Shown here in pieces: positions 1 to 600 of a DNA stretch of 600 nucleotides; within the stretch, counting starts at the first letter, position 1, and each line of letters begins with the position of its first letter. Origin of the DNA: Escherichia coli (lineage in GTDB: Bacteria; Pseudomonadota; Gammaproteobacteria; Enterobacterales; Enterobacteriaceae). The notes beneath the pieces were generated by a model that ran no database searches, had not been told where the DNA came from, and was given only the letters and a program-made list of their open reading frames with translations. Position numbers and translations under genes: made by a program. The stretch lies in assembly GCF_003334405.1 (NCBI RefSeq), contig NZ_QOWM01000062.1; one strand, written 5' to 3'.

Positions 1-600
1 CCCTCATCCTCGCTGCGGATAAGTTTGCCGGTCAGGTCGTGGTGATAACGCTGTGTGCGGCCGTCAAAGCCGGTTTCCTGTATCAGCCGGTCAAGTACAT
101 CGTAACGGAAGGTGGTGTGGCTGCCGTTTTCACTGGTCAGGCGGATGACCCGTCCGGCAGCATCGTATTCCATACTGCGCGTCAGCCCGCCCTGCGTGGT
201 ACGGACGGCCTTTCCCCACGCATCGTACTGTGTCCCGTTTCTGCTGCCGTCCGGGGCAATGACGGCGGTCAGGTCACCGGCGATGTTGTATTCATACCGC
301 GTTTCATGGCCCTGCGTGTCTTTCACGGCAATTAACTGTCCACGGCTGTCGTATGCGCGGTACTGACTCAGCCCTTCCTCGCGGTGCACCGCCGTCATCT
401 GCCCGAAGCGGTCATGGTCATAACGGGTTACATAACCGGAACAGTCGGTGAAGCTCAGCAACTGACCGTAACGGCTCCACGTCATGGTTTTCCGGCTGCC
501 GGTGGCATCTTCCGTTGCGCAGGGTAAGTCACTGTGTGGATTATCATAACGGTAGCGGGTGATATCGCCGTCAGGGGCAGTTTCCTGAATCAGACGGCCC
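1..600 (-). CDS. rhs: Rhs-family YD-repeat protein, core region (internal fragment, partial at both ends; codon phase: first full codon at + strand 599-597, last full codon at 5-3)
   Basis: Seen in sequence: the reverse-complement frame beginning at + position 599 is open for all 199 codons, while the other two minus-strand frames have stops within the first ~30 nt (TGA at RC 28-30; TGA at RC 9-11). The translation contains eight YD-repeat units with the canonical Rhs pattern (e.g. GDITRYRYDNPHSDL, GYVTRYDHDRFGQMTAV, GLSQYRAYDSRGQLIAV, GHETRYEYNIAGDLTAV, TQYDAWGKAVRT, MEYDAAGRVIRLT, FRYDVLDRLIQET, RYHHDLTGKLIRS). Established knowledge: this motif and spacing define the Rhs/YD-repeat core (Pfam RHS_repeat type), and the sequence strongly resembles enterobacterial Rhs cores from memory. 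Which paralog (rhsA, B, C, etc.) cannot be resolved from an internal core fragment, so only the family symbol is given. No database search was run. Confidence 0.93.

Follow-up and report, generated by a model that had tools for sequence, protein, structure and literature searches.

The window, i.e., the entire stretch of 600 nt analyzed here, almost certainly derives from an Escherichia coli Rhs gene that belongs to the rhsA/rhsB/rhsC subfamily and is read on the minus strand; it covers the middle part of the conserved core and encodes about ten YD-repeat hairpins of the predicted protein shell. Directly observed were the sequence identity and family membership, the anatomy of the repeats, the location within the gene and the context of the K-12 loci, and no observation spoke against the assignment. 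The feature is already known: it is a textbook segment of the E. coli Rhs core. Rhs elements have been described since 1984, and the biology of their toxins, immunity proteins and shells is well understood.

Reading frame and repeat anatomy

A six-frame check identified a single frame devoid of stop codons, the minus-strand frame at offset 1, which comprises 199 codons from position 599 down to position 3 of the window; the five remaining frames contain 2-13 stops each. As the DNA has a G+C content of 59% and 32 of 5000 mononucleotide shuffles of the window also resulted in a fully open frame, the open frame on its own is only modest evidence. The decisive evidence for the Rhs frame is its repeat content rather than its openness. 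The 199-aa product contains six literal YD dipeptides compared to 1.24 expected from its composition, and six or more were reached in just 7 of 20000 residue shuffles. In addition, self-similarity of the product peaks at lags of 21, 42, and 62 residues, with a mean BLOSUM62 score of 0.33 at lag 21, while no lag in any of 1000 shuffles exceeded -0.19. Division of the product at the anchor G-[RQKD]-[LVMA] yielded nine complete units of about 21 aa and one partial unit with the pattern xGxxxRYxYDxxGRL(I/T) (Table 1).

Table 1. Features located on the 600-nt window; residues refer to the 199-aa product of the minus-strand frame.
Feature	Position	Strand	Residues	Sequence	Basis
Internal Rhs core ORF fragment, rhsA/rhsB/rhsC subfamily	1..600	-			Open frame; NF041261; TIGR01643; four to five Pfam RHS_repeat domains; exact match in rhsA and rhsB
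YD-repeat unit 1	537..599	-	1-21	GRLIQETAPDGDITRYRYDNP	Motif layout; Pfam RHS_repeat aa 1-19
Degenerate unit 2, WS in place of YD	468..536	-	22-44	HSDLPCATEDATGSRKTMTWSRY	Motif layout
YD-repeat unit 3	405..467	-	45-65	GQLLSFTDCSGYVTRYDHDRF	Pfam RHS_repeat aa 42-76; layout
YD-repeat unit 4	342..404	-	66-86	GQMTAVHREEGLSQYRAYDSR	Layout
YD-repeat unit 5	279..341	-	87-107	GQLIAVKDTQGHETRYEYNIA	Pfam RHS_repeat aa 83-119; TIGR01643 best stretch aa 83-120
YD-repeat unit 6	216..278	-	108-128	GDLTAVIAPDGSRNGTQYDAW	Layout
YD-repeat unit 7	156..215	-	129-148	GKAVRTTQGGLTRSMEYDAA	Pfam RHS_repeat aa 125-160
YD-repeat unit 8	93..155	-	149-169	GRVIRLTSENGSHTTFRYDVL	Pfam RHS_repeat aa 145-182
YD-repeat unit 9	30..92	-	170-190	DRLIQETGFDGRTQRYHHDLT	Layout
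YD-repeat unit 10, start, ended by window edge	3..29	-	191-199	GKLIRSEDE	Layout; repeat continues in full-length RhsB
Antisense ORF, 98 aa	39..335	+			No NCBIfam match at E<=1
Antisense ORF, 84 aa	112..366	+			No NCBIfam match at E<=1
Antisense ORF, 47 aa	384..527	+			No NCBIfam match at E<=1

Searches against Rhs and YD-repeat models, which had been proposed as a check in a preliminary description of the sequence, were positive throughout. The NCBIfam model NF041261 (RHS_core) matched the 199-aa peptide end to end and collinearly at profile positions 501-699 of 1261 (E=2e-117). The corresponding score of 393.6 bits does not reach the 2000 bits that this model requires for a whole protein because just 16% of the protein is located within the window; the full-length K-12 proteins RhsA and RhsB, whose genes contain the identical 600 bases, scored 2645.1 and 2643.8 bits, respectively, and are both above the cut-off. 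The YD-repeat model TIGR01643 matched three stretches of the peptide with 86.8 bits (cut-off 15.8; E=5.4e-25), and Pfam RHS_repeat (PF05593) yielded four domains at E<=5.5e-6 and a fifth at 1.1e-3. The matches to TIGR01643 and PF05593, the 21-aa periodicity and the enrichment of YD above the shuffles mark the product as an Rhs/YD-repeat protein. The preliminary description, which had reported a single stop-free minus-strand frame of 199 codons that is rich in YD repeats, was correct in both respects. Neither a start or stop of the gene nor a toxin tip, an immunity gene or a protease motif is present within the 600-base window.

The G+C content of the window rises to 67% at third-codon positions, and that of the flanking K-12 loci (10-17 kb) ranges from 46 to 54%. 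The Rhs core has been described as G+C-rich and atypical in composition, with which the composition of the window agrees (PMC2935791).

Position in the rhs genes and occurrence among E. coli genomes

Both K-12 rhsA (4134 nt) and rhsB (4236 nt) contain the window without a single mismatch at nt 1476-2075 of the gene, and the complete codons of the window (positions 599..3) encode aa 493-691 of RhsA and RhsB. This mapping bears out the earlier proposal that the window is situated wholly inside an Rhs core gene. RhsA (b3593) and RhsB (b3482), which belong to the rhsABCF subfamily or Clade I, are identical to the window at 600 of 600 bases and share the same YD anatomy. RhsC (b0700) and RhsD (b0497) are members of the same family with the same core position as the window, but here the identity is lower, i.e., 97.7% to rhsC (14 substitutions) and 80.3% to rhsD, which has been placed in a separate rhsDE subfamily (PMC2935791).

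A megablast search of the window against 5426 complete E. coli genomes resulted in matches in 3897 of them, with a median of four and a maximum of seven places per genome, and in 1639 records the best place displayed an identity of at least 99%. Many strains possess the window at 100% identity over 600/600 bases, under genes labeled rhsA, rhsB, rhsC or ‘RHS element core protein’. Exact identity to annotated rhs genes confirms that, as had been anticipated, this is a known family and not a new system, and the sequence of the window marks its source as E. coli or an organism very closely related to it. As the window matches both rhsA and rhsB exactly and the PGAP names vary, it is not assigned to a single rhs locus. 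PGAP labels for the identical 600 bases differ by strain; the names follow the tips or the loci and not the core. Plasmid-borne places accounted for 6 of the 16556 matching places.

The window could also originate from a decayed rhs copy, e.g., a pseudogene, a truncated core or a gene disrupted by an IS element, in which case the open frame would represent an undamaged stretch. Decayed copies do occur: rhsE, ybfO, yibJ, and ylbH of K-12 are rhs pseudogenes or orphan fragments of the core, and the intactness of a gene is not readable from 600 bases. However, rhsE and the K-12 orphan fragments have retained just the 3’ part of the core, and no match to the window was found in the truncated rhsE locus or the K-12 orphan core fragments, the matches being one per rhs locus. 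Among the 100%-identical matches listed, all 30 of 30 fall under coding sequences annotated as RHS core, rhsA, rhsB or rhsC, and none of these is annotated as a pseudogene. Also the differences to rhsC are mostly located at third-codon positions (8 of 14, with five amino-acid changes), as expected for a constrained coding sequence. Taken with this evidence, an origin from a decayed copy appears very improbable.

Even less credible, to the point of being negligible, is a true feature on the plus strand, i.e., an antisense ORF or a structured RNA, to which the Rhs frame would be incidental. Three plus-strand ORFs of 47-98 aa are indeed present, but no Rfam match at E<=1 was obtained for either strand of the window, and three K-12-lineage records list no feature on the plus strand within either rhsA or rhsB. 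In GC-rich coding DNA, chance alone is expected to produce long antisense ORFs; the longest open stretch in shuffled sequences had a mean length of 112 codons. The three ORFs, for which neither a family match nor a K-12 annotation was found, are most likely antisense by-products of G+C-rich coding DNA.

The site of the window corresponds to positions 8001-8600 of both K-12 locus extracts, L001 (rhsB) and L002 (rhsA). In K-12, a tract of 2513 nt (gene nt 955-3467) that contains the window has the same sequence in rhsA and rhsB, and the two genes differ at only five positions within the first 3467 nt. Judged from the sequence, the identity of this tract in two loci about 140 kb apart looks like the result of recent gene conversion or duplication. 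The name rhs, for ‘rearrangement hot spot’, goes back to RecA-dependent unequal crossing-over in which rhsA and rhsB recombine and the glyS region is duplicated (Lin et al., 1984, cited in PMC2935791 and PMC3150448). The window lies inside the perfectly identical rhsA/rhsB tract that would support such an unequal exchange. At the DNA level, the same sequence is a repeat of about 3.7 kb that is present in multiple copies and sustains RecA-dependent unequal crossing-over. This repeat mediates chromosomal duplications and can mislead both assembly and read mapping.

Predicted shell structure and toxin architecture

To place the core segment within the whole protein, the domains of full-length RhsA and RhsB from K-12 were considered. 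Pfam, with the full-length protein scanned in pieces, assigned DUF6531 to aa 46-123 and RHS_repeat matches scattered from about aa 318 to 980. The Rhs-associated core domain TIGR03696 is located outside the window at aa 1170-1247 of both proteins (83.2 bits, cut-off 32.5). PF03527 (‘RHS’, E=1.5e-15), also outside the window, directly precedes the DPIGL...DPLGL motifs, which were recognized by eye in the translations of both proteins. The tips, again outside the window, were identified by Pfam as Ntox34 in RhsA (E=1.3e-43) and DUF4329 in RhsB (E=1.2e-38). A core domain ending in the DPxGL aspartyl-protease motif, which marks the border between core and tip, a variable toxin tip and a cognate immunity gene downstream, all present in the K-12 RhsA and RhsB systems that contain the window, characterize Rhs polymorphic toxins. 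Accordingly, the suggestion in the preliminary description of such a toxin with a YD shell and a variable tip is supported by the K-12 genes with the identical 600 bases, which carry the core domain and either Ntox34 or DUF4329.

The closest solved structure is that of Tse5 from Pseudomonas aeruginosa (PDB 8cp6), which was matched by the window peptide at E=4e-45 and by full-length RhsB at 3e-127. In the Tse5 shell chain, the window peptide aligned to residues 410-600 (about 457-647 in full-length Tse5 numbering), inside the barrel, and it also aligned to six further solved Rhs shells. The Tse5 barrel is situated between an N-terminal plug (residues 48-124) and a C-terminal protease plug (1092-1168) and consists of 40 YD beta-hairpins, in which the DxxGR motif makes each turn (PMC10684867); the N-terminal plug corresponds to DUF6531. 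As the window falls inside the region of a Tse5-like barrel of YD hairpins, it is predicted to encode about ten of the hairpins that make up the shell wall. Going by the homology to solved shells and the published structures (PMC10684867, PMC8636562), these hairpins would spiral into a closed barrel around the toxin, the Rhs beta-cocoon.

In Tse5, the first 47 residues form a PAAR-like fragment that is required for secretion and is cleaved off between K47 and P48 (PMC10684867). In the alignment, the sequence PVNPLLGAK at aa 48 of RhsB coincides with the start of the cleaved Tse5 shell at P48 (PVNPMLGSK). RhsB and Tse5, which is an Rhs effector of the H1-T6SS, are alike in an N-terminal piece of about 47 aa, the shell start PVNPxLGxK with the DUF6531 plug, the YD barrel, the protease plug and the toxin tip, which suggests that RhsA and RhsB have a three-piece design of the Tse5 type. 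However, Tse5 is from another organism and carries a pore-forming C-terminal toxin in place of the Ntox34 or DUF4329 tips of the K-12 proteins. Secretion by a T6SS has been demonstrated for Tse5, while for K-12 RhsA and RhsB it is a proposed route.

Homology of the window peptide to YD beta-cocoons, at E values from 5e-35 to 1e-4, extended to RhsA of P. protegens (7q97), Rhs1/Tre23 of Photorhabdus (7pq5), Rhs of Salmonella bongori (8qja-d), Tse15 of Acinetobacter (8uy4), the Tc toxin components TcC/YenC2, and teneurins. Vibrio RhsP-type proteins and 8h8a were further YD-shell homologs, the teneurins being more distant. Solved YD-shell proteins other than Tse5 differ either in an N-terminus that is extended by prePAAR/TMD, a VgrG fusion or clade domains, or in being part of eukaryotic or insecticidal systems. 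With full-length RhsB as the query, the match to TcC was confined to the protease plug at the C-terminus.

For Rhs1, experiments have demonstrated that the toxin is encapsulated and that the protein undergoes aspartyl autoproteolysis (PMC8636562). We infer by homology that the fold, encapsulation, autocleavage and the export route also apply to the rhsA/B/C clade. In the mechanism proposed, the N-terminal PAAR-like piece of 47 residues would dock on the VgrG spike. The approximately ten YD-repeat beta-hairpins at aa 493-691 of the protein, which has about 1400 aa, would contribute to the wall of a hollow beta-barrel ‘cocoon’ around the C-terminal toxin. The plugs that close this barrel would be DUF6531 and, at the C-terminus, the Rhs-associated aspartyl protease, and autocleavage at the DPxGL motif would free the toxin tip (Ntox34 in RhsA, DUF4329 in RhsB), against which a small downstream gene would supply immunity.

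N-terminus, export and context of the K-12 loci

The N-terminus of RhsA and RhsB consists of 47 residues (MSGKPAARQGD...) ahead of PVNPLLGAK, encoded at positions 9935-10075 of the rhsB locus extract L001 on the minus strand. The Pfam PAAR_motif on aa 2-20 of RhsB did not reach significance (E=0.24) and covered only the last 19 positions of the motif, and a SalCis10 protein of 99 aa matched the RhsB N-terminus weakly (E=0.056). The 47-aa N-terminus is collinear with the PAAR-like N-terminal piece of Tse5 and the cleavage site K47|P48. It may constitute a minimal PAAR-like adaptor, encoded by a gene with no adjoining vgrG.

The preliminary description had also named delivery by a T6SS or other contact-dependent routes. 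At the level of the family, the T6SS is the best-supported putative route, but rhsA/B/C clade genes are not adjacent to vgrG: no vgrG flanks rhsA, rhsB, rhsC or rhsD in the K-12 loci, and the clade has been described in EHEC as unlinked to vgrG islands, the translocating VgrG not being known (PMC7216683). Since the genes are not adjacent to vgrG, T6SS-mediated export of the rhsA/B/C proteins is a putative route.

K-12 is not known to possess a T6SS, although an explicit statement was not obtained by the literature search. In strains without a T6SS, the rhsA/B/C proteins might not serve as secreted weapons and might act independently of this system, for example as intracellular toxin-antitoxin modules or in the cell envelope. 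Gene conversion might then preserve the near-perfect identity of the cores for a purpose unrelated to delivery. Salmonella Rhs has been reported to function as intracellular toxin-antitoxin modules (PMC7043789). Such a T6SS-independent role gains no support from the window itself, and we consider it unlikely.

The notion of a toxin/immunity hot spot, which had also been raised, fits every K-12 rhs locus; however, the context is not visible in the window, and with at least two loci per genome it is not defined which locus is meant. Downstream of the K-12 rhs genes, orphan core-plus-tip pseudogenes, genes of immunity families (Imm57, Sel1/TPR, PF15631, PF15596), and ISEc1/H-repeat transposases are located. 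Each K-12 rhs gene is also followed by a small ORF; these ORFs are yibA (at rhsA), yhhH (at rhsB), ybfB and ybbC. YibA has been reported to neutralize the toxicity of RhsA-CT (Vlazny and Hill, 1995, as cited in PMC3150448). For the window, toxin and immunity cargo is to be expected at a distance of 1.6-2.2 kb toward lower window coordinates, i.e., on the 3’ side of the gene.

YhhH is a protein of the PF15631 family and the presumed immunity gene product at rhsB. The region of the rhsB stop overlaps the start of yhhH by 29 nt (positions 5840-5868 in the rhsB locus extract L001 and 6400-6428 in L006), and rhsC abuts ybfB with an overlap of 1 nt (position 6777 in L003). Both overlaps are compatible with a possible translational coupling of toxin and immunity genes.
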